Shown here in pieces: positions 1 through 24,605 of a DNA stretch of 64,000 bases (positions are counted from its first letter, which is position 1; every line of letters begins with the position of its first letter). The DNA is from Acidimicrobiia bacterium (lineage in GTDB: Bacteria > Actinomycetota > Acidimicrobiia > Spongiisociales > ZC4RG35). Both the position numbers and the translations under genes were made by a program. Under the pieces are notes generated by a model. The model saw only the letters and a program-made list of their open reading frames with translations. It was not told the origin of the DNA and made no database searches. The stretch is from contig OZ244034.1 of assembly GCA_965215185.1 (NCBI GenBank), forward strand, positions 1,088,001 to 1,152,000, given 5' to 3'.

Positions 1-1457
1 GATTCGATGTCTTGTCGGATTCCATACAAGGGTTCGAAGAGGGGATCTGTTTCGGGGATGGGTCGCAGGGCGCGGGTTCGGCGGGTGTGTCGTTTGGCTT
101 GGCGTTCTTGGGGGGTGCTGTTGTTTCGGATCCAGGTGATGGCTCCGATCATGTGTGGTGGCGCGACGGGGTGGTCGGGGATTTCCCATTGGGTGTAGAC
201 GATGTGTTTGCGGGTTCGTTTCCCGGGTTTTTTGATTTGGGTGCGGGTTCGTCGGAGGGGCTGGTAGTAGGGGTGTCCGGTTCCGTCGAAGACGAGGATG
301 GTGGGGGTGCCGTTGAGCGCGACGATGTTTTCTTCGAACTCGCCGTGTGCGGTTTTGAAGGTGCCGGGTCCCAGGTTGACTGCTGCGGTTTTGCCTTGGC
401 TGGTGCGGGGTGTTTTGCTTATTGGCAGGATGCCTTGGTCCATGAGACGGTCACAGTCGGCGGAGCGCATGGCCATGTCGTAGGTGACGGCGCGTATTCC
501 TTGGGTGAGGTGGGGAAAGTCTTTGCACATTTGGATGATCTTTTTGGTGAACAGGTTGGAGTCGGACTGTCCGGGTTGGTCGAGGATTTCCGCGAATAGA
601 GGGATGCGTTCCTGCCGGTGGGGTCCGCGTACCACGGCGGCTACAACACAGTAGCAGTAGCCTTTTTCTTCGCCGGGCATGGGACGAACGTCGGGGTCGC
701 AGCGATGCTTGGGTTTGTGGCCGGGCTTGCCGGGTGGTGGGTTCTTGAAGGCGGCGAGTGTAAAGGTGCCGTCACCGGCGACTATCTGGGTGGGATCGGG
801 ACGGCTGATGGAACCGGTGGTGGGGTCTAGCAGGTCTATGAATCGGGCGGCTTCCAGGGAGGCGCCGGTGGCTGCTTTTTGCAAACGGTTGATGACCCAC
901 GGATTCATGTAGGTTGTTCGAAAATAGTACTCGTTGTCACGGGTGGGCGGCTCTTCGGACAGTCTCCGGTTGGGATGGTCGGGCCACGCTTGTTCGGCGA
1001 CTTTTCTGAGCATGTTCCATTTTTTCTGTTCGGTGGGGAACTTCCAGTTGCGGTTGATGGTGTTCAGGTTCCTGTTCGTTGACCGTAACGAGCCGTAGAT
1101 GAAAACCGCCACTTGGAACAGGAGCCATTCGGCAGCGGTGTGCTTGCGGGGCCTGCCGCTTTTCCGGCGGTCTCCGAACACGGCCCGGATAGCGTTTTCT
1201 ATCAGTTCGCTTAGTTCCCATAGAAGCGAGTTGGACACTAGGGATGACAGGTTCTCGTCGTCTCCCCACCCGAGACCCTCCCCTTTGACGTTCCGTTCGC
1301 TGTTGCTTCCCGGAGTGTCGGACCTTTTCAATACCAGAGGTGTGTCTTCCCGTTCCTGGTAGGTGGGGTCTTCCCAAACCAAGTCGACCTGGTCTGCTCG
1401 TATCGGGTCCAGGTTGTCGTTGAACACCCGGGGACGGGCACCCTTTTTCTTACCCAC
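1..1457 (-). CDS. DDE transposase (IS4-superfamily-like), runs off the window start; not in the ORF track
   Basis: Manual translation gives an open frame from GTG 1457 (GGAGG upstream): MGKKKGARPR...SGRPRKH...VAGDGT...KGY...TYDMAM...LYGIRQDIES, i.e. D, D and a Y-x2-R-x3-E motif. Confidence 0.8.
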   Translation of the reverse strand, partial: MGKKKGARPRVFNDNLDPIRADQVDLVWEDPTYQEREDTPLVLKRSDTPGSNSERNVKGEGLGWGDDENLSSLVSNSLLWELSELIENAIRAVFGDRRKSGRPRKHTAAEWLLFQVAVFIYGSLRSTNRNLNTINRNWKFPTEQKKWNMLRKVAEQAWPDHPNRRLSEEPPTRDNEYYFRTTYMNPWVINRLQKAATGASLEAARFIDLLDPTTGSISRPDPTQIVAGDGTFTLAAFKNPPPGKPGHKPKHRCDPDVRPMPGEEKGYCYCVVAAVVRGPHRQERIPLFAEILDQPGQSDSNLFTKKIIQMCKDFPHLTQGIRAVTYDMAMRSADCDRLMDQGILPISKTPRTSQGKTAAVNLGPGTFKTAHGEFEENIVALNGTPTILVFDGTGHPYYQPLRRTRTQIKKPGKRTRKHIVYTQWEIPDHPVAPPHMIGAITWIRNNSTPQERQAKRHTRRTRALRPIPETDPLFEPLYGIRQDIE

Positions 1458-2371
1458 TCTGCCCCTCCATGAACACTTCAAGTCGTGCTTGCCCAACCTG
1501 TTTCCAGTCGTATCCCAATGCTTTGATCACGCTGGTCAGCGAGTCGGAACCGAGGAACCGGGCAGCGGCCTCCAACCCAAGACAGTCAAGAATCTGTTTG
1601 GCGGTATGGAGGCGAACTGACCGGGCCGAAACCTCCGGCCGTTCCCCTCAGCCCGGCGTCGCTGATCACTTCGCCCAGCCGGACAGTCACCGCGTGTCCT
1701 CTCCGATCCGTCTCGATCTGCTCGCTCACTGCTAACAGCCTCTTCTCGTCAATCAGCGGACGGATCTGCAGGAACTGGCGGATCGTTTGCTGTCCCCACT
1801 CGCACAAGGGGTTCCGCCGCCCGCCGATCCAAACTCGCCTGTTCGGAAGGTCAAGATCGCTCTTGCGGACCTTGGCTATCTCTGAGGATGTGCCCCCGGC
1901 AAACGCCAACGCAACGATCGTCGCCCGCCGGGAGAACAACTGTCCCCGGTCCGCGAAACCCCTCACCCGTTTGGCTTCTTCCTCGGTCAACGGTCGGGTG
2001 GTCAACGAATCGTGGCAACGAGGGATGCGCTCCCCGGCTAGGCGACGTCCATCGGCCACCAGCCCCAATGTTTCGGCGGCTTCGAACACCGCCATCGCCG
2101 CCCACTGACGGTTACGGGCCGTGGACACCGAAGGCCGAGCATGCTCGCCGCCCGGTGTTTGCCGAGCAGCCCAACACCATGACAACACCACCTCCGACGT
2201 GACGTCCCCCCATCGTCTTATCCCCGCTGTGCGCAGATAACGAAAGAGTCTTTCCGCTTCGCCTGTTAGCTTCGCTGCGGTGCGGACATTGGCACGGTAC
2301 CTTTCTGCTACCAGATCAATGACTCTGGTAATAGCGGGTTCAATGAGCAGAAGTACAGGGGTCACGGTCAT
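1450..2371 (-). pseudogene. Tyrosine-recombinase-fold protein with a frameshift near 1643 and degenerate catalytic residues
   Basis: RRATIVALAFAGGTSSEIAKVRKSDLDL resembles box I. After a +1 shift it reads EVSARSVRLHTAKQIL...AARFLGSDSLTSVIKALGYDW (box II-like), and the stop overlaps the transposase GTG. Confidence 0.65.
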
Positions 2372-2378
2372 TTCTGCC

Positions 2379-2672
2379 TTACAAGATCCCACAACGATTA
2401 CAAAAACCGTTTTTGGGAGGCCCGGTTGGCGATACCCACAAAAGGTGTTCTTTCACTCCCAATACCATATACGCGCGCGCGACGCTAAAAAGGGAACTGC
2501 GCGGCGGATCCTTTTCGGGGCTATGGGATCCTGCCAGCCCGGTGGGGCGCCATGGAACGACCTGCCGGCCCTTCTGCCGAGATGTTGGACACGTCGCCCC
2601 AGCACAACACCAATGTCGGCATTGCGGACAGATTCTCTTGCCGCGACGGAACCTGCTGCCGGGATCGGACAT
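2379..2672 (-). CDS. Small Cys-rich hypothetical protein
   Basis: CPQC...CC...C and CNRC motifs; the stop lies just upstream of the recombinase-like ATG. Confidence 0.3.
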   Translation of the reverse strand: MSDPGSRFRRGKRICPQCRHWCCAGATCPTSRQKGRQVVPWRPTGLAGSHSPEKDPPRSSLFSVARAYMVLGVKEHLLWVSPTGPPKNGFCNRCGIL

Positions 2673-3656: not shown

Positions 3657-4778
3657 ATGAAACCTCTCGATGCTTTGTCGCTGGTTCCCACCGTGGAGGA
3701 CTCCAGGCGGGTAGCGGACGCCCTGCCCGGCAGCGTGGTCCTTTTCGGCAGCGTTGCCCGCGGTGACGCCGATCACGACTCCGACATCGATCTGCTGGTG
3801 ATTGTCGATCACGTAGACCGCGACAACCCTTGGGAACATCACCGCTTGTTATGCGACTTGGCAGAAAAGGCCGAGTCGGTAGACGCCCGCGCCGAGTTAG
3901 TGGTGGTGGACTGGCCCGAGTGGATGTCCCGCCGGCAGGTACCGGGACGGGTCGAGCATGCTGCCGACACCCAGGGAACGTGGCTTCGCAGGCACAGTCC
4001 CGGCTCGGAAGTAAAATGGGAAAAACTGATGAACCCGAGAGATGTCGCCACCGCTTCGGTCATAGCAGCGTTGCGTAACGCCACGGTGCGTTTAGAAGGC
4101 GCCGGTTCCTCTATGGTTCCCCACAGAAAGGAAATCAGGCTGGCCAGCGCAGGGGAAGAAAATCTGTATTGGTCGGCATGGCAAAGCAGGCTTGCGCGCA
4201 TCAACGGCGACCTGCACGATGGGTTGGAAGAACTGTTCCGAGCCTTGCGGTTGCTGACGGGGGTTTCTTACAACAAACGGGCCAAACACACCCTAGTGGG
4301 GCCCTTCGACGAGTTTCCCGGTCCGGTACAGGATGCCCTAAGCCAACACTTGACCGTAACGGACATGCAGTGGATTCAAATATGGCACTCGGCTTCTTTT
4401 TACGAAAAAGGCGCCCGGCTTAGCGTCTCCCCTGAGACCACCCGCCAGTTGGGGTATGTCGCCTCGGACGTGGCAGCGTACATTCATAACGTCACGGGTG
4501 TGGCGGCGGGTTTGGCTGTCTATTGCTCATCCACTATAAAAATCAGCCAGGCTGTTATAGCGCTGATACAGGAGGAAGCCTCTAACGGCGACGGCCCAGT
4601 AAAAGCAACCGCTGATCTGGAAACCGTGTTGAAGGACCTGTGGATCACCGTAGATTGGTTGAGGGAAGAACTGGACACCTCGCTGTGGCTGTACCCAGAC
4701 GGAACGCCCCCCAACGGTTGGACACAGCCCACACCCGCCGAGCTTCAAGGCAGACTCCCTCCGTGGAGCGGCCACTAG
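3657..4778 (+). CDS. Nucleotidyltransferase (MNT) domain fused to a helical, possibly HEPN-like C-terminal domain
   Basis: VVLFGSVARGDADHDSDIDLLVIVD is the GS-x10-DxD Pol-beta-type NTase motif. Confidence 0.75.
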   Translation: MKPLDALSLVPTVEDSRRVADALPGSVVLFGSVARGDADHDSDIDLLVIVDHVDRDNPWEHHRLLCDLAEKAESVDARAELVVVDWPEWMSRRQVPGRVEHAADTQGTWLRRHSPGSEVKWEKLMNPRDVATASVIAALRNATVRLEGAGSSMVPHRKEIRLASAGEENLYWSAWQSRLARINGDLHDGLEELFRALRLLTGVSYNKRAKHTLVGPFDEFPGPVQDALSQHLTVTDMQWIQIWHSASFYEKGARLSVSPETTRQLGYVASDVAAYIHNVTGVAAGLAVYCSSTIKISQAVIALIQEEASNGDGPVKATADLETVLKDLWITVDWLREELDTSLWLYPDGTPPNGWTQPTPAELQGRLPPWSGH

Positions 4779-5267
4779 GAATAGCCATTGAGGGCGCAAC
4801 GCCTTGCGGGCGTTCTCGCTCCGCCGGGCGGAAAAACAGAGGCGGTCCCGATGTTTAGCGAGCCCGGTCGGCGGTTTCGTTGAGGGCATGCCCGAAGCGG
4901 TTCGCATATTCCGCTCTGCGTAGTTTGCGGGCAACCTGTCGGCAGGGGAGAGGATTAAGCCGCGCCAACCTTCACTCGGAGATTGTGAAGCTCTGGCAAC
5001 ACAGTGGGACGGGGCGGTTCGAAATGGCGCTCTAATGCCTCGCCGAGATTGTCAAGTGCCTCCCAGTCGGGGTTGGCGCGTTATGTGGCGCGAAACTGTT
5101 GCGGTTTCTATGTTTATGGTAGTTGGGAGGGGCAGTGAGGGGTGGGGTGTTGCGCGTGGCAGGAACACATGGCGGAGATCGGTGTCACCGAGGCCATCCA
5201 AAGAGCACTACCCGCAGCTCGGTTCGGTAAACACACCGAGGATTAGGTGCAGTTGCCGGGCCGAGAA

Positions 5268-5551
5268 CGGTTTCGAAATCCGGTACAACCAGTTTCAGAA
5301 TTGGACGAAAGTGGTTTCACCGCTCTGTTCGCCCGATGCTGTGACCTGGGGTTGTGGGGTTTCGCGCCAGCGCCACAAGGGCGGTGGTGGCGCGAAACTC
5401 GGCGCGAAACTGGATGGGTTTAGGGTTTATGGTAGTTGGAGTGGGGAGTGGGGGGTGGGTTGTTGTGCGGGTGAGGTTTGGTGGGGGTGGGGGTGAGGGT
5501 TTTGGGCGTGTGGGCCGCGGTGGTCTAGGGCGGGGGTGTCTTTTGGGGGGT
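5268..5551 (-). repeat. Conserved downstream end of the DDE element
   Basis: GTTTC at 5270, 5292 and 5314, then GATGCTGTGACCTGGGG and the GTTTCGCGCCA...TGGCGCGAAAC inverted repeat. Homologous blocks at 7513-7619 and 20706-20878; partial at 5068-5150 and 17975-18010. Confidence 0.75.
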
Positions 5552-6414
5552 TTAGGCGGCTTTTTCGAGGGGTCCGGCTCGAGCGTTGGGGAAGTGGTTG
5601 CCGTGCCAGCGGGTCATGTCTTTGCCGGTGCGTGCGTGGTGGGCGACTAGGGCAGTGTTGGTCTGGTACAGGCAGTAGGCGATCCAGTTGAGTTTGAGGC
5701 TGGTTTTGTCTTGGGTGCGGAGCCGGTCGTAGTCCAGTTGTCTTTTGTAGGTCGCGAAGTGCGATTCGATGTCTTGTCGGATTCCATACAAGGATTCGAA
5801 GAGGGGATCTGTTTCTGGTACGGGTCGCAGGGCGCGGGTTCAGCGGGTGTGGCGTTTGGCTTGGCGTTCTTGGGGGGTGCTGTTGTTTCGGATCCAGGTG
5901 ATGGCTCCGATCATGTGCTGTGGCACCACGGGATGGTCGGGTATCTCCCATTGGGTGTACACGATGTGCTTGCGGGTCCGTTTCCCGGGTTTTTTGATTT
6001 GGGTGCGGGTTCGTCGGAGGGGCTGGTAGTAGGGGTGTCCGGTTCCGTCGAAGACGAGGATGGTGGGGGTGCCGTTGAGCGCGACGATGTTTTCTTCGAA
6101 CTCGCCGTGTGCGGTTTTGAAGGTGCCGGGTCCCAGGTTGACTGCTGCGGTTTTGCCTTGGCTGGTGCGGGGTGTTTTGCTTATTGGCAGGATGCCTTGG
6201 TCCATGAGGCGGTCACAGTCGGCGGAGCGCATGGCCATGTCGTAGGTGACGGCGCGTATTCCTTGGGTGAGGTGGGGAAAGTCTTGGCGCATTTGGATGA
6301 TCTTTTGGGTGAACAGGTTGGCGTCGGACTGTCCGGGTTCGTCGAGGATTTCCGCGAAAAGAGGGATGCGTTCCTGCCGGTGGGGTCCGCGTACCACGGC
6401 GGCTACCACACAGT
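5552..6414 (-). pseudogene. DDE transposase copy 2, 5'-truncated, with an internal stop
   Basis: Near-identical to 1-650. CGA>TGA at 5840-5842; C-terminus YGIRQDIESHFATYKRQL...LEKAA. Confidence 0.85.
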
Positions 6415-6601
6415 TGTTGGCGATCATCGAAATTCCCCACTTCCTGGGGCTAATACCCGTTGTTGGGTAGGGCTCTCTCCAAGCTGCTGATTGAAGCAAA
6501 GTCGGCAGCTGTGGAGAGGAGCCCTGGCCCTTATGTTGGCATTGGAGGAATACGTGGAAGTTCATGCTTTGAGAAGGCGGGGATGGTCGATATCGGCTAT
6601 A
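6415..6601 (+). mobile_element. IS21-family left-end remnant with the istA N-terminus
   Basis: Starts TGTTGGCGATCATCGAAATTCCCCAC; ATG 6533 reads MLALEEYVEVHALRRRGWSISAI (IstA HTH). Confidence 0.65.
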
Positions 6602-6937
6602 GTGGCATAGCCGGAGGGTCGGTTTCGTAAGAAACCCCGACCCCCGGGTGTTCGTAGTAGGCGCGCAGATGGTTGGCGTCAGTGAAAAGCATCGGGCGCG
6701 GTCATGGCCGGTGAGGCTCAGCTGAAGATCCAGGGGCGGGCTTGTTTGTTGGAGAGGATGTCGTCGTTTGGTGATTTTGGACTCGATCTTGATGGCGAAC
6801 GGCGCGTCGGCTGCGGGGTTATAGAGTTCCTTGAAGTGGTCGTGGATCACATCAAGGTGCTGTCTCAGTTGAACCATCTGGGCGTCGCTCATGAGTAGCT
6901 CGCCGCGTCGCACTAGGTTGGAGAGCGAGAGTACCTC

Positions 6938-7156
6938 GTGCCGGTATATACTGATCGCTTTATGAGACCTGATCCAAACATCGCCTTGATCCTCTCAATC
7001 TTTTTGGGTGGACTGGGAATTGATCGCATGTACGTTGGCCAAATCGGGCTGGGTGTGCTGAAGCTCCTCACCGCTGGGGGGCTGGGCATCTGGTGGCTGG
7101 TCGATTTGTTCCTGATCCGCGGGATAGCCCGGAAAGCCCAGCAAGAAGGCACTTAG
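6938..7156 (+). CDS. TM2-domain membrane protein, copy 1
   Basis: ALILSIFLGGLGIDRMYVGQIGLGVLKLLTAGGLGIWWLVD is a TM2 signature. Confidence 0.8.
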   Translation: MPVYTDRFMRPDPNIALILSIFLGGLGIDRMYVGQIGLGVLKLLTAGGLGIWWLVDLFLIRGIARKAQQEGT

Positions 7157-7512
7157 CACCCTGAGCGAGGGTTAAGGTGCAGACCGTCCTTCCCTCGGGG
7201 GACATGTCAAGTGCCCGACCTCACCTAAAGGCCGTGGCTGTCCGGTAACCGCTATTCCCAAAGGCGGATAGCGAGGGAACCGAGAAGGTTTGTGGGGGAC
7301 TTTTCTGATCAGTTGTGGGGTAGTTGCTAACTGTCTAGGTTCCGTCATCGGTTCCTTCGCCGGTGGAGCCTGGTATTCGGAGTCTGATTACGGTGCATTA
7401 GTCGCTGCCCAGGCAGCCGGTTCCATCAGTTTCGATAACGAACTCAGGGCCGAACTGTCCGGCGCAACGATCCCCGACCGCAAGTGGATGAATCTCAAAA
7501 CGGGACCGGTAG

Positions 7513-7619
7513 CGGTTTCGGAATTGGCCAGAAGTGGTTTCAGAATTTGCTGAAAGTGGTTTCACCGGCCTGTTCGCGCGATGCTGTGACCTGGGGCGTT
7601 GTGGTTTCGCGCCAGCGCC
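7513..7619 (-). repeat. Isolated copy of the DDE-element end
   Basis: GTTTC at 7515, 7537 and 7559, followed by GATGCTGTGACCTGGGG...GTTTCGCGCCAGCGCC. Confidence 0.7.
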
Positions 7620-7841
7620 GACCCAACAGGGCCTCTCACACGATCACAGAATACGTGTCCGCCAAACCGGGGGAACTCCATTACCACTCCACCCTTTCAA
7701 ATAGGCGGTTCAACCGCAAGCTCCTTCTTTGCAGCCCAACCCTACGGTAGTTGATCCTTTCGGGGTGGTTCCGGTGCGTTGGTGGTGTGATGTGAGTGCG
7801 GTGGTCAATTACTGAGGTTCCCCTAAGTCTCTACCAAACCC

Positions 7842-7971
7842 ACTCATACTGATAGGGGTCCCTTGGCCGGGGCGGGTCTGACCCATACCAAACCTGGCTT
7901 TTGCCTTTGCCCGATCTGTCGGCCTGTTTCCGGCTGAGGGATTGTTCACCGACCCGTGGGCGGATGTGACC
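7842..7971 (+). ncRNA. Truncated IS110 left end / bridge RNA with the target-binding loop only (element C)
   Basis: Highly similar to the reverse complement of 10800-10932; interrupted by an IS3 inverted repeat at 7972. Confidence 0.8.
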
Positions 7972-8025: not shown

Positions 8026-9252
8026 CTAGATATTCGCAGGGTTTTGTTGGGTGAGCCATTGTTGGTATTGGGTGGCGAGGTGGTGGTTGTGGTATAGGCC
8101 TCGTTCGAGTTGGGAGATGCGGTTGGGGTGGGTTTGGAGGGCGGTGGCGGCGTGGGTGAGGGTGGTCTGTGTGTGGTGGCGTTGGGTGCGTAGGAGGGCG
8201 CCGTTGGGTGTTGGTGGTGGGTTGGTGAGCAGGTGGTAGATCTCTCGGGCGATGTGGCGTTTTAGGCAGCGGATGATCTCCCGGCGGGTTTTGCTCTCGG
8301 TTTGGCGGCGGTGGGTGTATTCGATGGTGGGTTGATGGCAGCGCATCCGGGTGGTGGCGATACGCCATAAGGCGTTGTTGGCTTGGCGGTCGCCGCCTCT
8401 GTTGAGCCGGTGGCGTATGGTCTGCCCGGAGGAGGCCTGGACGGGACTGGCGCCGCATAATGCTGCGAAAGACGCTTCGGTGGTCAGGCGTTTGGGGTTG
8501 TCTCCTGCTGTGACCAGCAAAGCGGCGGCCGTGTCAGGACCGACACCCGGGGCGGAGAGCAGCGCCGGGTTGGCTCGGGAACAAAGACGAGTGATCTCTT
8601 TGTCGAGTTCTTTGATCTCGGTGGTGAGCGCCTGGCAGCGGCGCGCCAGATAGCGCAGTGTTTTCTTGGCGACCGTGGTGGTGGTATCGGCTGTGCCGGG
8701 ACGAAACCCGGCACAGGCTCGGATCCGGGCTTTGGTCGACAGTCCCCGGAGTTGGTGTTTGACCTGCTCGGGAGCGGTGACCACTAGGGCGTGGAGTTGG
8801 TTGATGGCCTGGGTGCGGGCTTTGATTGCGGAACGGCGGACTACCCGCAACATCCTGATTCCCTCGACCAGTCCGTCGGCGGTTTTGGGTCGGGCGGTGG
8901 CTTCACCGTTGAGAGCGGCCCGCCCGGCGGCTTGGGCGTCGGTGGTGTCGGTTTTTCCCAGTCGGCGGCGCAGCTGACGGTTGGGACGGTTGACTTCTAC
9001 CACCTCGATACCGATCCCGGTGAGATAGCGGGTCAGGCCGGCGCCGTAGCTGCCGGTGCCTTCCACCCCAACCCGCACCACACGACCCTGGGATCTCAAC
9101 CAGCCGCCCAGTTCCTCAAAGCCGGTTGCATCGGCCGGGAACGGAGCGGTTCCCAGGACTCGACCGGCGGTGTCCACTGCCGCCGCGACATGACAATCGC
9201 GATGGGTGTCCACCCCGCCAAACACCTCGACCAGGCTCTCTTTTTGTGACAT
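8026..9252 (-). CDS. IS110-family DEDD recombinase with a C-terminal XRE-like HTH
   Basis: GGVDTH, GVEGTG, GKTDTTDA, QASSG, RGGDRQAN; tail LRTQR...TLTHAATALQTHPNRISQLERG. Confidence 0.95.
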   Translation of the reverse strand: MSQKESLVEVFGGVDTHRDCHVAAAVDTAGRVLGTAPFPADATGFEELGGWLRSQGRVVRVGVEGTGSYGAGLTRYLTGIGIEVVEVNRPNRQLRRRLGKTDTTDAQAAGRAALNGEATARPKTADGLVEGIRMLRVVRRSAIKARTQAINQLHALVVTAPEQVKHQLRGLSTKARIRACAGFRPGTADTTTTVAKKTLRYLARRCQALTTEIKELDKEITRLCSRANPALLSAPGVGPDTAAALLVTAGDNPKRLTTEASFAALCGASPVQASSGQTIRHRLNRGGDRQANNALWRIATTRMRCHQPTIEYTHRRQTESKTRREIIRCLKRHIAREIYHLLTNPPPTPNGALLRTQRHHTQTTLTHAATALQTHPNRISQLERGLYHNHHLATQYQQWLTQQNPANI

Positions 9253-9488: not shown

Positions 9489-10703
9489 TCAAATCGAGTT
9501 TTGTGTGGTGATCCATTGTTGGTATCGGGTGGCGAGTTGATGGTTGTGGTATTGGCCTCGCTCGAGTTGTGATAGGCGTATTGGGTAGGTGTGGAGGGCC
9601 TCGGCGGCGTGAGCGAGGGTTGTTCGCGTGTTTTTGCGTAGACAGCGCAGATGGGCGCCGTCGGGTGTGTCCGGTGGGTTGGTGAGCAGCCTGTGGATCT
9701 CTCGGGCGATGTGACGTTTGAGGCAGCGGATGATCTCGCGACGGTTTTTGCCTTCTGTTTGTCTTTTTTGGACATAGGCGATGGTTGGCTGGTGGCGGCG
9801 CATGCGGGTGGTGGCGATCCGCCACAGGGCCTGGTTGGCCTGGCGGTTCCCGCCGCGGTTGAGACGGTGCCGGACGGTACGTCCCGAGGACGCTTGGACA
9901 GGGCTTACGCCGCACAGAGCAGCGAAAGAGGATTCTGAGTGCATGCGTTCGGGGTTGTCGCCTGCTGCGACCAATAACACCGCGGCGGTGTCGGCGCCGA
10001 TCCCGGGGGCGGCCAACAGTGCCGGGTTGACCTGGGCGCAGAGATGGTTGATCTGGGTGGTGAGTTCTCCGATCTCTGCGGTGAGGGTCTGGTATCGGCG
10101 GGCCAGGGAACGCAACGCCGCTTTGGCGTATCTGATGGTGGTGTCGGCTGTGCCTGGGCGGAAACCGGCGCAGGTCTTTACGCGGGCTTTGGGAGAAAGT
10201 CCTCCAAGTTGGTGTCTGACCTGGTCGGGAGCGGTAACAATCAGGGCGTGCAGCTGGTTGATGGCCTGGGTTCGGGCTTTGGTCGCCGAACGGCGGGCCA
10301 CCGTGAGCATCCGTATTGCTTCTACTGGACCGTTACCGCTTTTGGGCACTGCGGTGGCCTGTCCGCTGAGAACCGCCCGAGCCGCGGCTTGGGCATCGGC
10401 GGTGTCAGTCTTGCCCAACCGGCGGCGCAACTGACGGTTTGCACGGTTCACTTCCACCGCCTCCATGCCGATACTGGTGAGGTGGCGGGCCAGACCGGCG
10501 CCGTAGCTGCCGGTGCCCTCCACCCCGACTCGGACCACCCTGCCGTGGGACTGTAGCCAATCGCCCAGTTGCTCATAACCGGCCGTGTCGACCGCGAAAG
10601 GGGCTGTTCCCAGGACTCGACCGGTGCTGTCCACCACCGCTGCCACATGAACATCCCGATGGGTGTCCACCCCACCAAACACATCTACCTGACCTACTGA
10701 CAT
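9489..10703 (-). CDS. IS110-family DEDD recombinase (element B) with a C-terminal XRE-like HTH
   Basis: Same motifs as element A; its TGA stop overlaps the right-end TTGACA. Confidence 0.95.
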   Translation of the reverse strand: MSVGQVDVFGGVDTHRDVHVAAVVDSTGRVLGTAPFAVDTAGYEQLGDWLQSHGRVVRVGVEGTGSYGAGLARHLTSIGMEAVEVNRANRQLRRRLGKTDTADAQAAARAVLSGQATAVPKSGNGPVEAIRMLTVARRSATKARTQAINQLHALIVTAPDQVRHQLGGLSPKARVKTCAGFRPGTADTTIRYAKAALRSLARRYQTLTAEIGELTTQINHLCAQVNPALLAAPGIGADTAAVLLVAAGDNPERMHSESSFAALCGVSPVQASSGRTVRHRLNRGGNRQANQALWRIATTRMRRHQPTIAYVQKRQTEGKNRREIIRCLKRHIAREIHRLLTNPPDTPDGAHLRCLRKNTRTTLAHAAEALHTYPIRLSQLERGQYHNHQLATRYQQWITTQNSI

Positions 10704-10932
10704 GATTCCTCCTACTCGGAATATAATTCGGGCTGTTCACCAGACCCGCTGGCGGATGGACAACACACTCATGGTGGTGGAGAAGCAAGGCTCCTATCAG
10801 GTCACATCCGCCCACGGGTCGGTGAACAATCCCCCAGCCGGAAAACAGGTCGACAGATCGGCACCAAGGCACAAAACCAGGTTTCATAAGGGTCAGACCC
10901 GCCCCGGCCAAGGGACCCCTATCAGTATGAGT
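10704..10932 (-). ncRNA. Bridge RNA region of IS110 B
   Basis: Guide segments at 10880-10888 and 10857-10864 (target), 10790-10797 and 10766-10772 (donor). Confidence 0.8.
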
Positions 10933-11150
10933 GGGTTTCATAGAGGGTTGGTTGTTTGTGTAATTGGGGGTTTGATCGGGTTGGTTTGATGGTAGTTGGT
11001 TTCGTGTTCGGCGGGGGTGGTGTAGGTGGTATCTGGGGTGATTCCGCGAGGGTGGCGAAGGTGGTGTGGTCAAGGTCTCGCCAGGGTCCCCGGTTGCGGA
11101 TCAGTTCAGTTTTGTATAGACCGATGGTGGTCTCTGCCAGGGCATTGTCA

Positions 11151-12263: not shown

Positions 12264-13082
12264 TTAGTCGGCATCAGGGTTTTGGGTCCTACTAGTTAGG
12301 TGTTCCTGTATCTGTCCTAACGAAGCTTCGATGCGTTCTTGGCGCTGTTCAAGAGACCTCAGTCGGTTAACGAGGTCGGACTCTTGGTCTGATTCAACGA
12401 AGTATGCGGCTATGTTGGCGGTAATGAAGGACACCACCCCGATCCCGGCCAGCATCAATACCACCGCGGTTGCCCGGCCTCCCGTAGTGACCGGGGAGAA
12501 ATCTCCGTAACCGACGGTGGTGAGGGTCACCACCGTCCACCATAGGCCATCAACTAGCGAGTGTCCCTCGAATAAAGCGAACAGCCCCCCGGTTGCCAAC
12601 GCTATGAGAACGAAGGCGGCGGTTGCGTAGCCGAGTCCCCGCTTTCGGAGAACGCGACGCAGATGCGTCAAACCCCGGGCGGAAGCCGCCGCTAAACCCG
12701 CCAACCGGAGAAGGCGAAGAACCCGGACAAGGCGAGACAATCGCGCAAGCCGGGTGAGAGCGAACAGTTCGCCCAGCAGTGGAAAAGAGACAAGAATGAC
12801 CAGAAGGTCCAGCCAGGCCTTCCTGGCATAAGCAAGACGGTCGTCGGTCAGGAGAATCACCACCGCGAATTCCACAGTGAACGCTGCCCAGATAAGCCAA
12901 TTGACTATCTCGAAAACAGTCTCCCACCCACCGACGGCGATCTGTTCGCCTATTACTACCGGGAGAACCGCCAGCGCCGCAACCATCACCGGTATCTCGA
13001 ACTGTTGACGAACCTTCGCAGCCCGCGGGTTCAGCACATCGTCGATAGTCCGGTGATCCCTCACAAATCCCAAAGAGTACAC
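12264..13082 (-). CDS. Potassium channel family protein (6TM type)
   Basis: TTVGYGD selectivity filter and an Arg-rich S4-like helix (RLARLSRLVRVLRLLR). Confidence 0.9.
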   Translation of the reverse strand: MYSLGFVRDHRTIDDVLNPRAAKVRQQFEIPVMVAALAVLPVVIGEQIAVGGWETVFEIVNWLIWAAFTVEFAVVILLTDDRLAYARKAWLDLLVILVSFPLLGELFALTRLARLSRLVRVLRLLRLAGLAAASARGLTHLRRVLRKRGLGYATAAFVLIALATGGLFALFEGHSLVDGLWWTVVTLTTVGYGDFSPVTTGGRATAVVLMLAGIGVVSFITANIAAYFVESDQESDLVNRLRSLEQRQERIEASLGQIQEHLTSRTQNPDAD

Positions 13083-15190: not shown

Positions 15191-17680
15191 TTGGGCAGAA
15201 TCGTCGACGCCTTAAGCCGACTGGTTACGGCCCGTCCTATGGTGACGCTTGCCGCTCTATTCGTTACGACGATCTTCTTCGCCGCGGGAAGTGCTCAGCT
15301 TGCGCCACAGTCGACCAATGAGTCGTTCTTGCCCCAAGACAGCGAGATCACGAAGACATTGGAGGACCTAGAGGCTCTCTTCAGTGACTCCGCATCGGTA
15401 ACCCTCATGACATTAATCTTCCGAGGGGAGGCTCTCACTCCCGAAGGGCTCGCGCAGATGGAACGTGTTATTGAGGGGGTGCTCACGGACCCAGAAGTCG
15501 CCGACAACTTGGCGCCGAAGGATGCGGTCGTATCGCCTTCTCGGTTGGTAGCCGCCACGCTGCGGGTGACCAGTTTTGAAGGAATCACCCAAGCTCAGAT
15601 TGACGGGGCGATGAACGCCATTCGCAACACGCCGGAACTCGCACAGGTCCGGAGGGCGCTGGATGGGCTGACCGGAACCGATGACGACGGTACCCCCATT
15701 GCGGTCGCCAGTGTACGGCTGTTTGACATAGATGGGGCGGGCACCGCAGGCGACGCCGAACTCAGGATTAGCGAGTTGGTCAAACAGGAGAAGGGACCAC
15801 TCTCGGTTCGCAGCCTCTCGCAAGCTGTCATCGACGAAGCCCAAAGGGAAGCTACGGGTCCAAGGGGGCAGCGATTGTTGGGTCTGGCGCTGGTCGTTAT
15901 CGCGGCGATGACATTCCTCTTTATGCGCACGATATCCGATTTGTTGCTCACCCTAGGAGGTCTGGCTCTCGCGCTTATCTGGACGGTAGGCGCGCAGGGT
16001 TGGCTCGGACCGAACGCCCTCGGCCTCATCGGTCCGCCCAGCTCACTGGCATCGGTCGTACCATTAATTGTGATCGGACTTGCCGTCGACTATTCGATCC
16101 AAACCGTCGCTCTCTACCGTGAGCAAACGAATTCGGGTGAATCAGTAGCAAACGGAGTTCGCATAGGCCTGCGAAACGCGATCGTCCCTTTGTCGCTTGC
16201 GGCTATCACAACGATCATTAGCTTTTTCACAACGCTACTGTCGCCGTTCCCTGCGATCTCCGACTTCGGTGTCGTTACCGGCTTGGGAGTGGGTTTGAGC
16301 TTGATCGCGATGCTCACCCTGGTCCCTTCCGTCCGGGCAATAATCGACAGAAGGCGGGAGGACCGAGGTAACTTCGTTCCTGCTTATCCGATTGCAGAAG
16401 CAATTCCGGGCGTCAAAAGAGCAGCAGAGAAGCTTGGTGTGGTATTGGCACGCAGGCCGACCCTCTTTTTGTTGCTTGTGGTTTTGGTGACAATAGGGCT
16501 TGGGTATGAGGCTACTCGGATCGACACTGAATTCGGCAGGCAAGATTTGTTACCTCGGGATAGTGAAGTGATTGAGGACCTCACGACACTCGAAGCTGCC
16601 CTGGGCGGTTCGACAGAAATGGTAAATGTACTCATATCTGCTGAATTGACGGATACCCGAACAGTCCTGAACCTTTGGGATTTCATGACAGCGTTCCAGG
16701 ATGAAGGACAGCGACCGGCAGGCGTAGAGGGCAATATCAGTCTCTCGTTCGGTCACATCGCGTTTGACTGGATCACAGATGACGGCAGTCTGGAAGACAA
16801 GTACGACCCCGAGTTGGCAAGGCTTTTTCAGGAGGCGACCGCAGGCCTGCACGTTGACGCAAGACTCGTGCAGGAATTCATTGACAAACTGGAATCCAAG
16901 GAACCCGAAGTTGTACGGCAGGTCCTGGTCAACAACCCGGAAGGCATTGACACGATGCTGATTCAGTTCCAGGCACTTACCGACAACCCGGGGCGCACGG
17001 TGGACATGACCGAAGAAACCAAGCGACTGTGGTTGGGAAACAACCGCGAGATCACACCGACGTCCCAATCCATCGTAAGCATTGAGATCTCGAAAGTGGT
17101 TACAGAGACTCAAAGAAGGGCGATCATCACAACTATCGCTGCTGCCCTCGGCATACTCATCCTCTTCTGGGCATCCGTCCGCCAACCTGCCCTTGCCTTT
17201 ATAGCAGTCGGTCCTATCGTCCTGGCACTTGTATGTGCCCTGGGCACGATGTCTCTTCTCAACATCCCCTATACACCGGTGACCTCGATTATCACGGCAC
17301 TTTCGGTGGGAATTGGCGTGGACTACACAATTCATATGATCCACCGCTACCGAGAAGAATTCGCAAAGGAGCGCGACCCAGAAACCGCTGCAATACGGAC
17401 TCTTGCCACCACCGGTGCAGCCCTGCTGGGCTCGGCCCTCACGACAGCGGTGGGATTTGGAGTACTGACAATTTCGTCTATCCCCTCGTTCCAGCAATTG
17501 GGGCTCACCGCTGCCATCACAATCGCATACTCGCTGATCGTCTCCACCTTAGTTGTACCGCCGGCCTTGACTGTATGGGGCGTTTATCAAAATGCGCGGT
17601 TACGCTCCAAGGTGAGACACTTTTGGGATGATCTCGACGTCACCATAGACAACATTCATCAGCGCTACGAGGCTGACTGA
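15191..17680 (+). CDS. MMPL/RND-family transporter
   Basis: Two repeats with GLAVDYSI and GIGVDYTIH; about 12 TM segments. Confidence 0.9.
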   Translation: MGRIVDALSRLVTARPMVTLAALFVTTIFFAAGSAQLAPQSTNESFLPQDSEITKTLEDLEALFSDSASVTLMTLIFRGEALTPEGLAQMERVIEGVLTDPEVADNLAPKDAVVSPSRLVAATLRVTSFEGITQAQIDGAMNAIRNTPELAQVRRALDGLTGTDDDGTPIAVASVRLFDIDGAGTAGDAELRISELVKQEKGPLSVRSLSQAVIDEAQREATGPRGQRLLGLALVVIAAMTFLFMRTISDLLLTLGGLALALIWTVGAQGWLGPNALGLIGPPSSLASVVPLIVIGLAVDYSIQTVALYREQTNSGESVANGVRIGLRNAIVPLSLAAITTIISFFTTLLSPFPAISDFGVVTGLGVGLSLIAMLTLVPSVRAIIDRRREDRGNFVPAYPIAEAIPGVKRAAEKLGVVLARRPTLFLLLVVLVTIGLGYEATRIDTEFGRQDLLPRDSEVIEDLTTLEAALGGSTEMVNVLISAELTDTRTVLNLWDFMTAFQDEGQRPAGVEGNISLSFGHIAFDWITDDGSLEDKYDPELARLFQEATAGLHVDARLVQEFIDKLESKEPEVVRQVLVNNPEGIDTMLIQFQALTDNPGRTVDMTEETKRLWLGNNREITPTSQSIVSIEISKVVTETQRRAIITTIAAALGILILFWASVRQPALAFIAVGPIVLALVCALGTMSLLNIPYTPVTSIITALSVGIGVDYTIHMIHRYREEFAKERDPETAAIRTLATTGAALLGSALTTAVGFGVLTISSIPSFQQLGLTAAITIAYSLIVSTLVVPPALTVWGVYQNARLRSKVRHFWDDLDVTIDNIHQRYEAD

Positions 17681-18248: not shown

Positions 18249-20015
18249 TTAGAACGCCCACAGGCGGGGAATAAAGACGACGGACAGGACCCAGAAGATT
18301 AGGTTGAGCGGCACGCCGGCGCGTAGGAAATCGGTGTACTTGTAGCCCCCCGGGTTGTAAATCATCGTGTTGGTCTGGTACCCGACCGGCGTGGAAAACC
18401 CAGTGGAAGCGGCGAAGGTGATGGCCATCAGGAAAGGCCGGGGATCCACTCCGATCTGCTCGGCGGTGGATATGGCTATTGGGGCTAGAAGCACCGCCGC
18501 TGCTGCGTTGCTCATGGTTTCGGTCATGACCGCTGCCAGCAAGTAGATGGCCGCTAGGACAGCCACTGGTCCCAGGTGTCCGACCATCCCCACGGCGTGT
18601 TCGGCGATGAAACCCGACGCTCCGCTGGTGTGCATGGCGACACCCAAGGGAAGTATTCCGGCGAGGAGGAAAATGACCTGCCAGTTGATAGACCTGTAAA
18701 CGTCTTCGGGTTTGAGGATGCGGGTCATTACCAGGGCCACGCAACCGAGCAGAGCAGAAACCAGGATAGGTACGACATCGAAAGCGGCTAGACCCACGAC
18801 CGCTACGAGTATTCCGACGGCCAGTGGGGCTTTGCGTCGCAGGGCCGTGCCGGGGAGCTCGTTGAGGACTATGAAGTCGCTGCTGCGACGCAGAGACTGC
18901 ATTTCCCTCACATGCGTTTGGATCAGCAGCGAGTCTCCCACGACAAGTTTGATCCCGCTGAGTTTCTCGTGAACCGTTTCGCCTCGGCGTTGCATGGCCA
19001 GCACCAGGGCCTTGTAGCGGTTGCGGAAATCGGTTTCTTTGAGGGTACGCCCGACGAGTTTAGAACCGGGAGCCACCAGGGACTGAACGAGACGCAGATC
19101 CTCGTTTTGCAGGGCCTCGTCCCGGAGTTCGAAATCGGCGTTGATTCGGAGACCCATCGTCCCTCGGAGGCGTATCAGGTCGGGCAGGGAACCATGCACC
19201 AGCAGCACGTCGTCGGGTTGAAGCACCCGTCTCAGCGGCGCCCAACCATTTTCTTCGTCGGTGAGTACCCGTATGACGGTTATGTCGTGATCCTCTCCGA
19301 GTCTGCTTTCCACCACCGATTTGCCGACTAGGGGAGACTTGGCGCGTACTCGCAGTTCGGTCACGTATTCGCCCAAGTGGTAGGTGGTCGCCAACCGCCC
19401 CTGCTGGCGGTCCGGCAACAACCACCGTCCGAACAGCAAGAAAAACGCTACTCCGGCAACGAAAAGAATCAAGCCCATCCGGGTGAACTCGAACATGCTG
19501 AACGCCCCATACCCAGCATCCGCGCTGATCGCACTGACCAGCAGGTTGGTGGAAGTGCCGATGAGGGTGCATACCCCGCCGAACTGCGAGGCGTAAGAAA
19601 GGGGAATCAGGAGCTTCGAGGCGGATATATTCCGTCTGGTGGCGAGGATTGTAACCAGGGGAATGAACACGGCAACCGCGGCGGTGTTGTTCACAAAAGC
19701 CGACATGACGGTGATCGTCACCATGATCACCACCAGAGCGGTGAAATGGTTCCGGCTGAACCGGATCATGAGCCTGCCCACCACACTGGTGGCACCCGTT
19801 TTTTGCAGCCCGGCGCCGAGGACAAACATAGCGGCTACAGTCAAAGTGGCGTGGTTGCTAAAACCGGAAAACCCTTCTTTGGGTGTGACCAACCCGAGGA
19901 TCAGCAGCACACCCAAACCCAGCATGGCGACGATATCCAGAGGATATTTTTCGGAGGTGAACAGCACCACGATCCCCACGAGGATCGCCAACACGGCGAG
20001 GCCTTCGCCGGTCAT
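18249..20015 (-). CDS. SLC13/DASS-family permease with TrkA-C domains
   Basis: SAFVNNTAAVA, LIGTSTNL, TPVGYQTN; start uncertain. Confidence 0.9.
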   Translation of the reverse strand: MTGEGLAVLAILVGIVVLFTSEKYPLDIVAMLGLGVLLILGLVTPKEGFSGFSNHATLTVAAMFVLGAGLQKTGATSVVGRLMIRFSRNHFTALVVIMVTITVMSAFVNNTAAVAVFIPLVTILATRRNISASKLLIPLSYASQFGGVCTLIGTSTNLLVSAISADAGYGAFSMFEFTRMGLILFVAGVAFFLLFGRWLLPDRQQGRLATTYHLGEYVTELRVRAKSPLVGKSVVESRLGEDHDITVIRVLTDEENGWAPLRRVLQPDDVLLVHGSLPDLIRLRGTMGLRINADFELRDEALQNEDLRLVQSLVAPGSKLVGRTLKETDFRNRYKALVLAMQRRGETVHEKLSGIKLVVGDSLLIQTHVREMQSLRRSSDFIVLNELPGTALRRKAPLAVGILVAVVGLAAFDVVPILVSALLGCVALVMTRILKPEDVYRSINWQVIFLLAGILPLGVAMHTSGASGFIAEHAVGMVGHLGPVAVLAAIYLLAAVMTETMSNAAAAVLLAPIAISTAEQIGVDPRPFLMAITFAASTGFSTPVGYQTNTMIYNPGGYKYTDFLRAGVPLNLIFWVLSVVFIPRLWAF

Positions 20016-20705
20016 TCGGCCCGGTCCACGATCAAACCGGGTGTCCACCGGCAATACCCGAGTCCACGGTTGGGTGTCCACGGTTCGGTTCTTGTGATCA
20101 TTTTCGCTCCGGTATGCGCCCGCTGGTCACGGTTTGAACGTGACCCATACACCTAAACCTTGTTTCCCGGTGTTGATCCCCGGATGTTGCGGGCCTGTAG
20201 AGGCGGTGACTAGATGGTTGGAGACCCGAGGCGTATTTGATGGGAGCCTACCCGCATCCCCATAAAACCTTCGCTTGTTACGCCCCTGTCCGCTATTCGA
20301 CCGGGATCCAAGACATTGGTCTACGCTTAGGTACCCACTGTGAAAAACGACATGGCCACCACCAGCACTGATGATCTTTGGCGGCTGGCATGGTCCGCCG
20401 CTCCCGCTGGTGCCTTAACGACTTCGCCGTTCAGTGCTTCCGACTTGATCTGGTCAAGGAGCGACTTACCCAACGTGGTCTCCAGTGGGTAGGCAATCAC
20501 CTAGCGAAACCGCGTTAACGGACACAACCATCGATGCATTGGCAGGACGAGCGGCCCCAGTGGAATGCGACCCAGCCGAACCCGCTATGTAGGACATCCT
20601 TCAATCTTAAGAGGACGACCGCTGCAAGGGAGGTAACTACAAGAGCGGCTTGGAGGTGCGTGACCGAGAATTCCACGGGGCGCAACTTTGAGGACATGCG
20701 GCAGC

Positions 20706-20878
20706 CGTTTCAGGAATAGCCAAAACTGGTTTCGGAATTGGCTGAAAGTGATTTCAGCGTCCTGTTTGCGGGATGCTGTGACCTGGGGTGTTTTGGTTTC
20801 GCGCCAGCGCCCAAGGGCGGGGTTGGCGCGAAACTGTTGGGGTTTCTGTGCTTATGGTAGTTGGGGCGGAGAGTGGGG
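20706..20878 (-). repeat. DDE-element end of copy 3, separated from its transposase by an IS3 insertion
   Basis: (G/A)TTTC at 20707, 20729 and 20751; homology continues at 22202. Confidence 0.75.
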
Positions 20879-20976
20879 TGAACCGCGCCGGGTTTGGTAG
20901 AGGGTTTGGTGGTACCCGACTTTGGTGGAGTCGGGTTATTTGAATTGGTGGTGTGACTGACCCGGAAGGAGTCTTC

Positions 20977-22342: not shown

Positions 22343-22905
22343 TCAGGCGACTTGTTCGAGGGGTCCGGCTCTGGTGTCGGGGAAGTGGCTGCCGAACCAG
22401 CGGCTGATGTCTTTCCCGGTTCGTTTATGGTGGGCGACTAGGGCGGTGTTGATTTGGAATAGGTTGTAGTTGAGTTGTCGCTTGTAGGTACTGAAGTGCG
22501 ATTCGATGTCTTGCCGGGGTCCGTACAGCGGTTTGAAGGAGGGGTCTGTTTCGGGTATGGGCCGCAAACCGCGGGTTCGGCGGGTGTGGCGTTTGGCTTG
22601 GCGTTCTTGGGGGGTGCTGTTGTTACGGATCCTGGTAGTGGCTCCGACCATGTGCGGTGGGACGAGAGGTTTGTCGGGTATTTGCCATAGGGTGTAGACG
22701 ATGCTTTTCGGGTTCGGGGTCCGGGTTTTTTGATTTGGGTACGGACCCGGCGAAGGGGCTGGTAGTGGGGGTGGCCGTCTCCGTCCCTAACGGCGATGGT
22801 GGGGGTGCCGTTGAGGAGTGCTGTTGTGACGTATGAGGGTGGTGGCACCAACGAGGTCAGTGGGGACGAGTGGTTTGTCGGGGATAGCCCAGGTGCCGTA
22901 CATCA
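22343..22905 (-). pseudogene. DDE transposase copy 3, degraded, joined to a fragment of a more divergent paralog
   Basis: YGPRQDIESHFSTYKRQL; 22810-22905 reads MYGTWAIPDKPLVPTDLVGATTLIRHNSTPQ. Confidence 0.75.
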
Positions 22906-23957: not shown

Positions 23958-24605
23958 TCAGGTTCCGAAACGCTCCTCCAGAACTCTGATCACCTCCGAG
24001 GGGGCGATCTTCCGTTCGGCAGCCAAAACCAGCATGTGATAGAGAAGGTCAGCCATCTCCTCGGCTACTCGCCGGTTGGGTTCCTGTCCCTGAGCATGCT
24101 CTTTGGCAGCCATCAGCACTTCCGTGGCCTCTTCCACCACCTTGCGGGCACTCATATTCACGCCGCCTTCCAACAACCGGGTTGTGTAGGAGCCCGAGGG
24201 CCGCTGGGCGGCGCGGGAAGCGATCACTTCCCATAACCGCTCCAACCACTGGAACCCCTCCCCACGGGGACCGTCGGCGAAACAGGTAACGGTGTTACGG
24301 TGACAGGCGGGACCAGCCGGCCGGGCGGTGATCAATAGCGTGTCGGCATCACAGTCGGATTCGATCTTTACCACCTCAAGAAGGGAGCCGCTCGTGGCGC
24401 CTTTTAACCACAGTTCACCACGCGACCTCGACCAGAAGTGCACATAGCCGCTCTCCAAGGTGAGTAGGTAGGACTCTCGGTTGAGATAGGCCACCATCAG
24501 AACCTGACCTGTCCTGGCGTCTTGCACAACGCCCGGGATGAGACCTTGCGAGTCCCAGCGAAGCTCGTCGGGCGGGGGAGTGGCGGTTAGAGAAGACTTG
24601 GTCAT
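23958..24605 (-). CDS. hisIE: Phosphoribosyl-AMP cyclohydrolase / phosphoribosyl-ATP diphosphatase
   Basis: [35 protein letters not shown]. Confidence 0.95.

Follow-up and report, generated by a model that had tools for sequence, protein, structure and literature searches.

A stretch of 64,000 nucleotides from an Acidimicrobiia bacterium (contig OZ244034.1, positions 1,088,001 to 1,152,000; G000:C1:1088001-1152000), hereafter referred to as the window, opens with two minus-strand genes, one for a protein with the fold of a tyrosine recombinase (YR) whose catalytic residues appear eroded, and one for a DDE-type transposase. The locus raises the question of what a recombinase fold that seems to have lost its chemistry does beside a transposase, and whether the pair is mobile. 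On the data presented below we hold it probable (approximately 0.7) that the window opens inside a DDE transposon of Actinomycetota that carries cargo and is specific for both site and orientation, with the dead recombinase serving as its target selector. The conserved core of this transposon consists of two translationally coupled genes, encoding the eroded YR-fold protein of ~305 amino acids (aa) and then a Tn5/IS4-like DDE transposase of 555 aa, with variable cargo between the left end and the YR gene.

A conserved pair of coupled genes

The gene neighbourhood was surveyed in 55 non-duplicate loci from a family search, a phylum search and a metagenome scan, 31 of them with a near-full transposase. 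Wherever such a transposase is accompanied by at least 900 nt of upstream sequence (27 of 27 loci), a YR-like gene is located directly upstream on the same strand, which upholds the pairing noticed in an earlier, sequence-only reading of this locus. The linkage persists down to ~25-30% transposase identity across the phylum sample, and the trees of the two proteins agree in the main groups. The element has a scattered distribution, being present in 24 of 201 family genomes and in 26 of 401 of the phylum sample; scans of genome contigs and metagenome contigs yielded 2 and 6 loci, respectively, and nearly identical transposases of elements at tRNA-Phe (transfer RNA, tRNA) occur in two bacterial families.

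In the window, open reading frame (ORF) calling recovered the three co-oriented and tightly spaced minus-strand ORFs that had been described, at 2382-2687, 1586-2392 and 3-1496, and the assignment of the middle one to the YR fold and of the last one to the DDE transposases holds on profile matches, structure matches and invariant DDE residues. The transposase starts at a GTG (1457-1455), has 486 of its 555 codons inside the window and extends 207 nt beyond the window start; its N-terminus as read from this GTG (VGKKKG...) agrees with the N-termini of relatives. The YR-like ORF 1586-2392 comprises 268 aa, compared with 304-310 aa in intact relatives, and its C-terminal 58 residues carry on in another frame to a TAA at 1452-1450, so that the overlap between the YR stop and the transposase GTG exists as claimed once the change of frame is allowed for. 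A frameshift had been suspected near 1643; there is one, and judged against two relatives it is caused by one extra G at 1632/1633. We inspected contigs of four public sequencing runs (X1, X4, X6 and X7, the last without cover at this position), and none of the contig depth from X1 (1 contig), X4 (3 contigs) or X6 (3 contigs) contains the extra G. Since the base is left out in these contigs, the frameshift is private to this assembly or strain; alternatively it may be an assembly error.

The small Cys-rich ORF had been counted as a gene of the module. It has no Pfam or NCBIfam match, no tblastn match in any other fetched locus, including the region upstream of the YR-like gene in relatives, and neither a homologue nor a self-hit among 5.8 billion proteins. 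As judged from these searches it falls outside the conserved module and is probably not a gene.

Two further observations concern the gene pair. In one locus (L071, 4163-4624), a 153-aa ORF with a helix-turn-helix-like stretch lies upstream of the YR gene on the opposite strand and is divergently oriented; no counterpart was seen in the window. The database protein P0014 (350 aa) aligns with the YR-like protein (83% over 53%) as well as with the transposase (96% over 28%); rather than a natural fusion, it is probably a fusion call produced by a frameshift in a relative.

The transposase has a predicted Tn5-like fold

The window transposase matches no Pfam or NCBIfam family, and a PDB sequence search with the transposase profile returned nothing meaningful. 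Six of 37 relatives match DDE_Tnp_1 below threshold (best 21.7 bits, cut-off 23). The AlphaFold model (predicted local distance difference test, pLDDT, 88) was compared with known structures using Foldseek, where the top five matches are all Tn5 transposase (E 1.7e-6 to 1.9e-5), and in VIA, where Tn5 transposase is matched at Z 13.7-14.5 with a root mean square deviation of ~4.3 over ~295 aligned residues (best 297, model residues 64-548), followed by piggyBac (Z 9.8) and TnsB (Z 6.0-6.2). The model shows a Tn5-like fold in which the domain inserted between the second D and the E is also represented, and the N-terminal region is modelled as long and helical.

The catalytic motifs of the window copy read GDGT, YDMA and DIES. 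D229, D327, R481 and E485 are invariant in 37 of 37 diverse full-length relatives and K492 is present in at least 90%. R481, E485 and K492 are spaced as R-x3-E-x6-K (window copy YGIRQDIESHFATYK), which corresponds to part of the IS4 signature Y-x2-R-x3-E-x6-K; the Y is not conserved across the family. By predicted fold and by triad, the protein is a Tn5/IS4-like DDE enzyme. A word index gave 12 relatives, and an exhaustive profile search of representatives at 50% clustering gave 897 at E<=1e-3 and 201 at E<=1e-30; the transposase clusters carry the label "hypothetical protein" in the Atlas.

The partner protein retains the recombinase fold and has lost catalytic residues

For the YR-like protein 54 relatives were found. 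Its profile matches XerA at E 5e-4 with the catalytic domains aligned; the ORF in the window scores 12.3 bits against Pfam Phage_integrase (cut-off 27.1), and 7 of 41 relatives match this family below threshold (best E 7.8e-4). The model of an intact homologue, P0022 (81% identical; pLDDT 89), has only tyrosine recombinases as top structural matches: XerA at Z 17.6, XerH 14.8, lambda Int 14.8 and Cre ~14. XerH, lambda Int, Cre and Tn1549 Int match at Z 13-15 over residues 5-307, that is, over both domains. The model also matches the phage regulators SroF (Z 12.1), YopR (10.1) and MrpR (9.6), which are catalytically inactive.

Tyrosine recombinases have the catalytic set R-K-H-R-H/W-Y. We assigned the corresponding positions from the XerA profile alignment and known spacing, not from residue-level structural superposition, and on this assignment Arg I is replaced in all 41 close relatives (T37, S3, I1) and the His of HxxR by Arg or Ser (R40, S1). 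Arg II is kept (R40, Q1), His III has become S20, A12, L5, V3 or P1, and the position of the Tyr nucleophile is occupied by Y21, H16, F2 and V1, with one gap. By residue number, R254 and R257 are kept in 40 of 41 close relatives and H230 in 41 of 41. Among partners of distant transposases, Arg I is kept while Arg II and both His are lost, and the Tyr position reads F5/W2/L2/Y4/H2 in 15. No YR-like relative examined keeps the full catalytic set.

These data bear on what had been read from the window copy. The motifs GGTSSE, RSVR and LGS are all found there, and the substitutions recur in the 41 closest relatives, intact homologues likewise failing to keep R-H-R-H-Y. The statement that no Tyr stands at the usual position needs modification: a Tyr (..ALGYDW) is present in the window copy, three residues past the spacing from the LGH equivalent that we take, from XerD and lambda Int, to be usual, and the position is unconserved in the family. 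Invariant residues concentrate in the N-terminal domain (TARNRQW) and among basic residues of the former active-site pocket. Sequence and model together indicate that the YR fold is conserved and the chemistry is not, with an erosion that differs between subfamilies. The proposal that an inactive YR fold has been reused as a transposon subunit thus gains from linkage and catalytic loss; whether the subunit would serve in targeting, end binding or regulation is weighed below. Complex prediction for the two proteins gave a score of 0.27 (mark 0.32), which weighs neither way.

Outside the window, at G000:C1:1316220-1316808 (window 228220-228808), there is another YR-like copy (63-64% identity); it is decayed, containing frameshifts and stop codons, and has no adjoining transposase.

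Elements end at the first base of tRNA genes

In the window locus, ~170 nt after the transposase stop, the +1 of tRNA-Arg(CCT) is reached at window -377. The right end closes with two direct repeats (GTTTCGCGCC, 12-nt period) followed by ACCACC, which adjoins the tRNA +1. Of 44 loci in which the transposase 3' end is followed by at least 350 nt of sequence, 34 show a same-strand tRNA 168-252 nt past the last aligned codon, and in one set of 14 junctions and another of 22 the transposase-side end abuts tRNA +1. The targets are Arg(CCT), Arg(CCG), Lys(TTT), Phe(GAA), Ala(TGC) and Thr(GGT), the last resting on an unpublished genome. Every junction shows a common layout, consisting of a TAnnnT-like box, two ~10-nt repeats, 5-7 nt and the tRNA +1, with the TAnnnT box conserved 45-60 nt upstream of the tRNA in the right end. 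The right-end motif is absent upstream of the other 48 tRNAs in this genome. Distant groups without Arg II in the partner protein still sit at tRNA +1.

Empty and filled sites were compared at 29 tRNA-Phe loci of another bacterial family. Sixteen have the native arrangement (tRNA-Asp, a spacer of 3-50 nt, tRNA-Phe), nine are occupied with an element end abutting +1, three are in another state and one lies at a contig end; one of the occupied and one of the empty loci are from unpublished genomes. Between tRNA-Asp and tRNA-Phe, G573 has an insert of 1.9 kb and G214 one of 31.8 kb. The 1.9-kb insert (L145, G573:C3, 188-1990) retains the right end only, and its remainder reads as reverse-strand coding sequence; no recognisable left end was seen in it.

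At tRNA-Arg(CCT), all 16 genomes of genus g1 in which the locus was read keep an element end upstream of the tRNA. Two of these, G008 and G015, have no transposase match.

Ends, 8-bp duplication and tandem arrays

The element in the window has imperfect terminal inverted repeats, GGCGCTGGCGCGAAAC (left) and GGTGGTGGCGCGAAAC (right), which match at 13 of 16 positions here and at 12 of 12 in G102. The subterminal GAAAC repeats are asymmetric, with four on the left spaced 45/22/22 nt and two on the right with a 12-nt period. The left end spans ~110 nt, comprising the terminal repeat and three further GAAAC sites, and copies diverge beyond it; the same 107-113 nt sequence recurs at 7507-7619 and 20699-20811, and three other genomes carry it too. 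Between clades the sequences of the two ends covary, as an GGCGCGAAAC type and an GGTTGGAAAC type.

The tRNA-proximal unit of the window extends from -376 to 5374 (5.75 kb) and has GCCCTTGT on both sides. Tandem junctions have the order right end, 8 bp (tRNA bases 1-8), left end, and 16 such junctions were found in 8 genomes. The word GCCCTTGT is also present at junctions in G002, G014 and G012, while G102 and G030 have GCCCTCGT and GCCCACGT, respectively, with arms GGGATCGGTTGG rather than GGCGCTGGCGCG; six further junctions were found in G231 and three in G260. In these arrays the tRNA-proximal copy is intact, and older copies farther out are decayed. The six junctions of the G231 array, together with its tRNA junction, bound units of 1.5, 3.2, 1.5, 5.25, 2.45 and 11.5 kb, and the YR and transposase genes are present only in the tRNA-proximal 11.5-kb unit, which looks active. 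The cargo of this unit (L105, G231:C1, 5533-12344) includes a complete type I restriction-modification system (HsdM, HsdS, HsdR) and a pentapeptide-repeat protein, so the family is able to move defence genes.

Two candidate interpretations of end-like sequences were discarded. Matches to GCTTGGCAAC as left ends of other element types are chance matches within coding sequence. The displaced 8-bp words are not regarded as tRNA remnants, since Rfam (gathering threshold, window 1-26000) gave no match and ARAGORN found no tRNA inside the window.

The island in the window

Synteny with the genus relative G012 resumes at ~23969, at hisI, and the region from window -376 to ~23960 is therefore an island built at tRNA-Arg. 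Its features are listed in Table 1. The recurrence of the transposase that had been noticed within the window is real and consists of partial copies; the one nearest the tRNA retains 96% aa identity over residues 283-568 with one in-frame TGA, and G000 has a single full transposase copy.

Table 1. Features of the tRNA-Arg island and adjoining sequence, in window coordinates
Feature	Position	Strand	Remarks
DDE transposase gene	1..1457, running on to window -207 (G000:C1:1087793)	-	555-aa open frame; 98% identity to cluster P0004
YR-fold accessory gene, eroded catalytic residues	1450..2371	-	Profile match to XerA; homologue model
Cys-rich ORF, 102 aa	2382..2687	-	No family match, no counterpart
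Candidate cargo, 373 aa, N-terminal nucleotidyltransferase domain	3657..4778	+	Pfam NTP_transf_2 3.8e-9, Polbeta 1e-7
Right-end-like fragment	5062..5130	-	TGGCGCGAAAC motif at 5086-5096 on + strand; neither 8-bp word nor left end follows
Left end	5262..5374	-	Terminal repeat, then three GAAAC repeats 45, 22, 22 nt apart
8-bp word, target-site duplication	5375..5382	-	GCCCTTGT; identical to bases 1-8 of tRNA-Arg(CCT) abutting the other end
Older internally deleted element	5383..7619	-	Right end 5383-5554, transposase C-terminal fragment 5555-6412, left end 7507-7619
Second tandem junction	20699..20880	-	Right-end copy 20819-20880, 7-nt word GCCCTTG (20812-20818), left-end copy 20699-20811
Decayed transposase fragments, residues 394-568	22346..22815 (22346-22738, 22705-22815)	-	tblastn 65% and 84% identity, profile matches
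hisI-type gene (PRA-CH + PRA-PH)	23958-24605		Far edge of the tRNA-Arg island

The tRNA-proximal unit contains the intact transposase, the frameshifted YR gene, the nucleotidyltransferase gene, which lies between the left end and the YR gene and is antisense to the module, and an internal right-end fragment. The unit looks composite, as if made up of a 313-bp left-end-to-right-end miniature and a transposase-bearing element without its own left end. The match to contigs of X4 and X7 breaks off exactly at 5374, which supports this position as a genuine terminus. In X4 and in X6 a single contig crosses the unit with ~5.8 kb missing, which hints weakly at polymorphism of the unit. One X6 contig joins the left end via 8 bp to a right end resembling the element's own. 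We rejected its interpretation as an excised circle, given that a tandem copy yields the same junction and that its depth equals that of its neighbours.

Farther out in the island there are genes for an ion channel (12264-13082), an MMPL-family transporter (15191-17680) and a CitMHS/TrkA-C transporter (18249-20081), which may be cargo of older, decayed units. The island also has two minus-strand IS110-family transposase genes (DEDD_Tnp_IS110 and Transposase_20; 8026-9252 and 9489-10703), which are 78% alike over 300 nt and are flanked by 73-nt inverted repeats (7829-7901 and 10873-10945; 92% complementary).

Proposed mechanism and alternative explanations

The tandem junctions fit a staggered cut of 8 bp at tRNA +1/+8, which would duplicate bases 1-8 and leave the tRNA gene whole. 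We propose that the transposase would carry out all of the DNA chemistry, i.e. both cleavage and strand transfer. The dead recombinase would be a sequence-specific DNA-binding subunit that recognises the body of the tRNA gene next to the cleavage site, brings in the transposase and sets its orientation, in the manner of TnsD and TnsF of Tn7-like elements. Each new insertion would enter between the resident copy and the tRNA, which would place the recognised determinant 3' of the cut, within the tRNA body. Because an insertion severs the tRNA from its upstream operon, and because the TAnnnT box is conserved, the right end might supply an outward promoter for a tRNA separated from its own; such a promoter would explain why the end is retained in every genome of the genus. 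A selector role for the YR-like protein is favoured since close transposases with similar ends use different tRNAs, and since Tn5-type transposases bind their own ends. TnsF provides a tested precedent (Faure et al. 2023, PMC10293859). Taken to its full extent, the proposal describes a compact two-protein system of guided insertion, in which the dead recombinase reads the tRNA and sets a Tn5-like cut at +1/+8 in one orientation, natural retargeting has reached at least five tRNA species, and promoter capture makes the remnant unlosable and hence a permanent landing pad for defence genes and other cargo. For this fuller version we put the odds slightly below even.

Several observations weigh against the transposon with a dead selector. 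Ten of the 44 transposase 3' ends have no adjoining tRNA; at least four of these are tandem junctions (L003, L017, L018 and L101) and the others are unexplained. For Phe-, Ala- and Lys-type elements, the 0.5-1.5 kb preceding the YR gene yielded no clean left end accompanied by a matching 8-bp word, and the 8-bp duplication is thus documented for Arg-type elements only. The far edge of the 31.8-kb island in G214 reads GGCCACGT with no clear repeat after it, and no left end of the Thr type was found in the fetched flanks when searched for by right-end reverse complement and 8-bp word. In the window itself, the internal right-end fragment makes the true left boundary of the unit uncertain, and this boundary is perhaps lost. 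Orientation is not absolute, since in L068 (~2100-2160) two right ends face each other across an inverted 8-bp word (ACGAGGGC), implying at least one opposite insertion. A promoter/terminator scan of the right end, which models E. coli-type promoters only, found nothing. The YR-like gene evolves ~2x as fast as the transposase everywhere, not just where the target changes. Finally, the selector role is suggested by analogy, next to the argument that a Tn5-like transposase has its own end-binding domain.

The same site-specific DDE transposon could be arranged differently, with target choice residing in the transposase and the YR-like protein either binding the GAAAC repeats, as an architectural protein or in end synapsis, or repressing transposition. 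We consider this unlikely, though clearly less so than the alternatives that follow. GAAAC-type sites are indeed repeated at both ends, four on the left and two on the right, the repressors SroF, YopR and MrpR are among the structural matches (Z 12.1, 10.1 and 9.6), and the transposase has a long helical N-terminal region to which no specificity has been assigned. However, closely related transposases (branch lengths 0.27-0.3) whose elements have similar end repeats are found at tRNAs for Arg, Lys and Phe, which points to a separate and faster-evolving specificity module; Tn5-type enzymes bind their ends themselves; and the strict orientation and fixed cut position resemble the selector-driven Tn7 family. 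In another alternative, the YR-like protein would still be a recombinase with a non-canonical active site, for which right end, 8 bp and left end form the core site, with a circular element recombining conservatively at the tRNA 5' end and the DDE protein serving otherwise. Inverted arms of ~12 bp around the 8 bp do resemble a YR core site, both mechanisms would give the same product, and R254, R257 and H230 are kept almost throughout the close relatives (40, 40 and 41 of 41); the X6 junction contig would fit as well, as would a tandem copy. Against this, the nucleophile position has H, F, W, L or V in many members, which makes a recombinase unlikely; Arg I is never R in the close group and Arg II is lost in distant groups that still sit at tRNA +1, whereas the DDE triad is invariant in 37 of 37 and the transposase is always present in full-length units. 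Altogether we regard an active recombinase as very improbable.

An equally slight chance is given to the view that the pair is immobile, that is, vertically inherited as domesticated genes beside tRNA-Arg, with the window repeats arising from local duplication or recombination. The retention of the end in 16 of 16 genomes of the genus, the single full copy in G000, and the frameshift and unclear left end of the window copy would all agree with it. Nevertheless, empty and filled tRNA-Phe sites within one family and the use of several targets, six different tRNAs in all, make it unlikely; moreover, cargo and unit size vary within arrays, near-identical transposases occur in different families, and contigs of two runs (one each, a weak point) skip ~5.8 kb across the unit. 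We therefore retain the transposon with a dead recombinase as selector as the preferred explanation.

Relation to known transposons and tRNA islands

In common with Tn5/IS50 and the IS4 family, the element has a DDE triad whose second D and E are separated by a long insertion, an R-x3-E-x6-K arrangement after the last strand (the Y of the full signature not being conserved), and terminal inverted repeats; the target duplication is also of similar size, 8 bp here and 9 bp for Tn5. It differs from them in remaining below the Pfam DDE_Tnp_1 threshold, in its obligatory upstream partner gene and multiple asymmetric subterminal repeats, and in being strictly site- and orientation-specific and carrying kilobases of cargo. 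Tn7, through TnsD, reads a conserved essential gene and inserts downstream of glmS (attTn7) in one orientation, leaving the gene undamaged. On our reading this safe-harbour strategy, and the building of islands by repeated insertion, are shared here, although the element inserts upstream, at tRNA +1, would have to replace a promoter, and uses different machinery. The hallmark of Tn7-like elements is a TnsB-type transposase together with the ATPase TnsC and TniQ/TnsD; no ATPase gene was seen between the YR gene and the right end in any locus, the cargo regions not having been searched systematically for one.

Integrase-borne islands at tRNA genes are formed by active integrases that use the 3' part of the tRNA gene and generate repeats of 15-50 bp or more. 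Islands and tandem arrays beside tRNA genes, with a short direct repeat derived from the tRNA, are common to both, but here the 5' end of the tRNA is used, the repeat measures only 8 bp, the element terminates in inverted repeats, and the protein with the recombinase fold has lost its catalytic residues. The YR fold is likewise kept for DNA binding in YopR, MrpR and SroF; they are, however, prophage repressors and not transposon subunits, and match the model at Z 9.6-12.1, below the true recombinases.

The closest parallel is Tn6022, a Tn7-like element in which the inactivated YR TnsF selects the target (Faure et al. 2023, PMC10293859). Tn6022 is, like the element described here, a DDE transposon with cargo and target-site duplications, and its inactivated YR-domain protein directs insertion to one conserved site, a role that we would extend to the YR-like protein (PMC10293859). 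Tn6022 depends on TnsA, TnsB, TnsC and TniQ in addition to TnsF and inserts at comM, whereas the present element has two conserved genes, inserts at the first base of tRNA genes, and has a transposase that is Tn5-like (Z 14.5) and not TnsB-like (Z 6.0-6.2). TnsF and the YR-like protein are likened here by proposed role and recombinase domain, not by sequence relatedness. Insertion sequences of the IS1202 group target dif/pdif at a fixed distance and orientation from the site bound by XerC/D (PMC10132070); in that case the recombinases are the active Xer proteins of the host, while the YR-fold protein here is encoded by the element and, from its residues, appears inactive. Neither this pairing nor a bacterial DDE transposon targeting tRNA 5' ends was found in the openly searchable full-text literature, a coverage that leaves out subscription journals and ISfinder/TnCentral.

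Site-specific DDE transposons that have a selector are already known, as is the use of an inactivated YR in that role. What is new is the Tn5-type machinery of two genes, the targeting of tRNA 5' ends and, if the right end acts as we suggest, the replacement of the promoter; insertion at the first base of a tRNA gene by an element that apparently supplies the promoter is unusual in bacteria. The system may be a second, probably independent, case of a dead YR serving a DDE transposase and, with two proteins and no ATPase, it is far simpler than Tn7. The choice of site and orientation by a Tn5-type enzyme becomes testable at the bench, with possible use in targeted insertion. Our data describe an unnamed transposon family with ~900 representative transposases at 50% clustering and no Pfam model, which shapes islands next to tRNA genes throughout Actinomycetota and accounts for some that would otherwise have been attributed to integrases.

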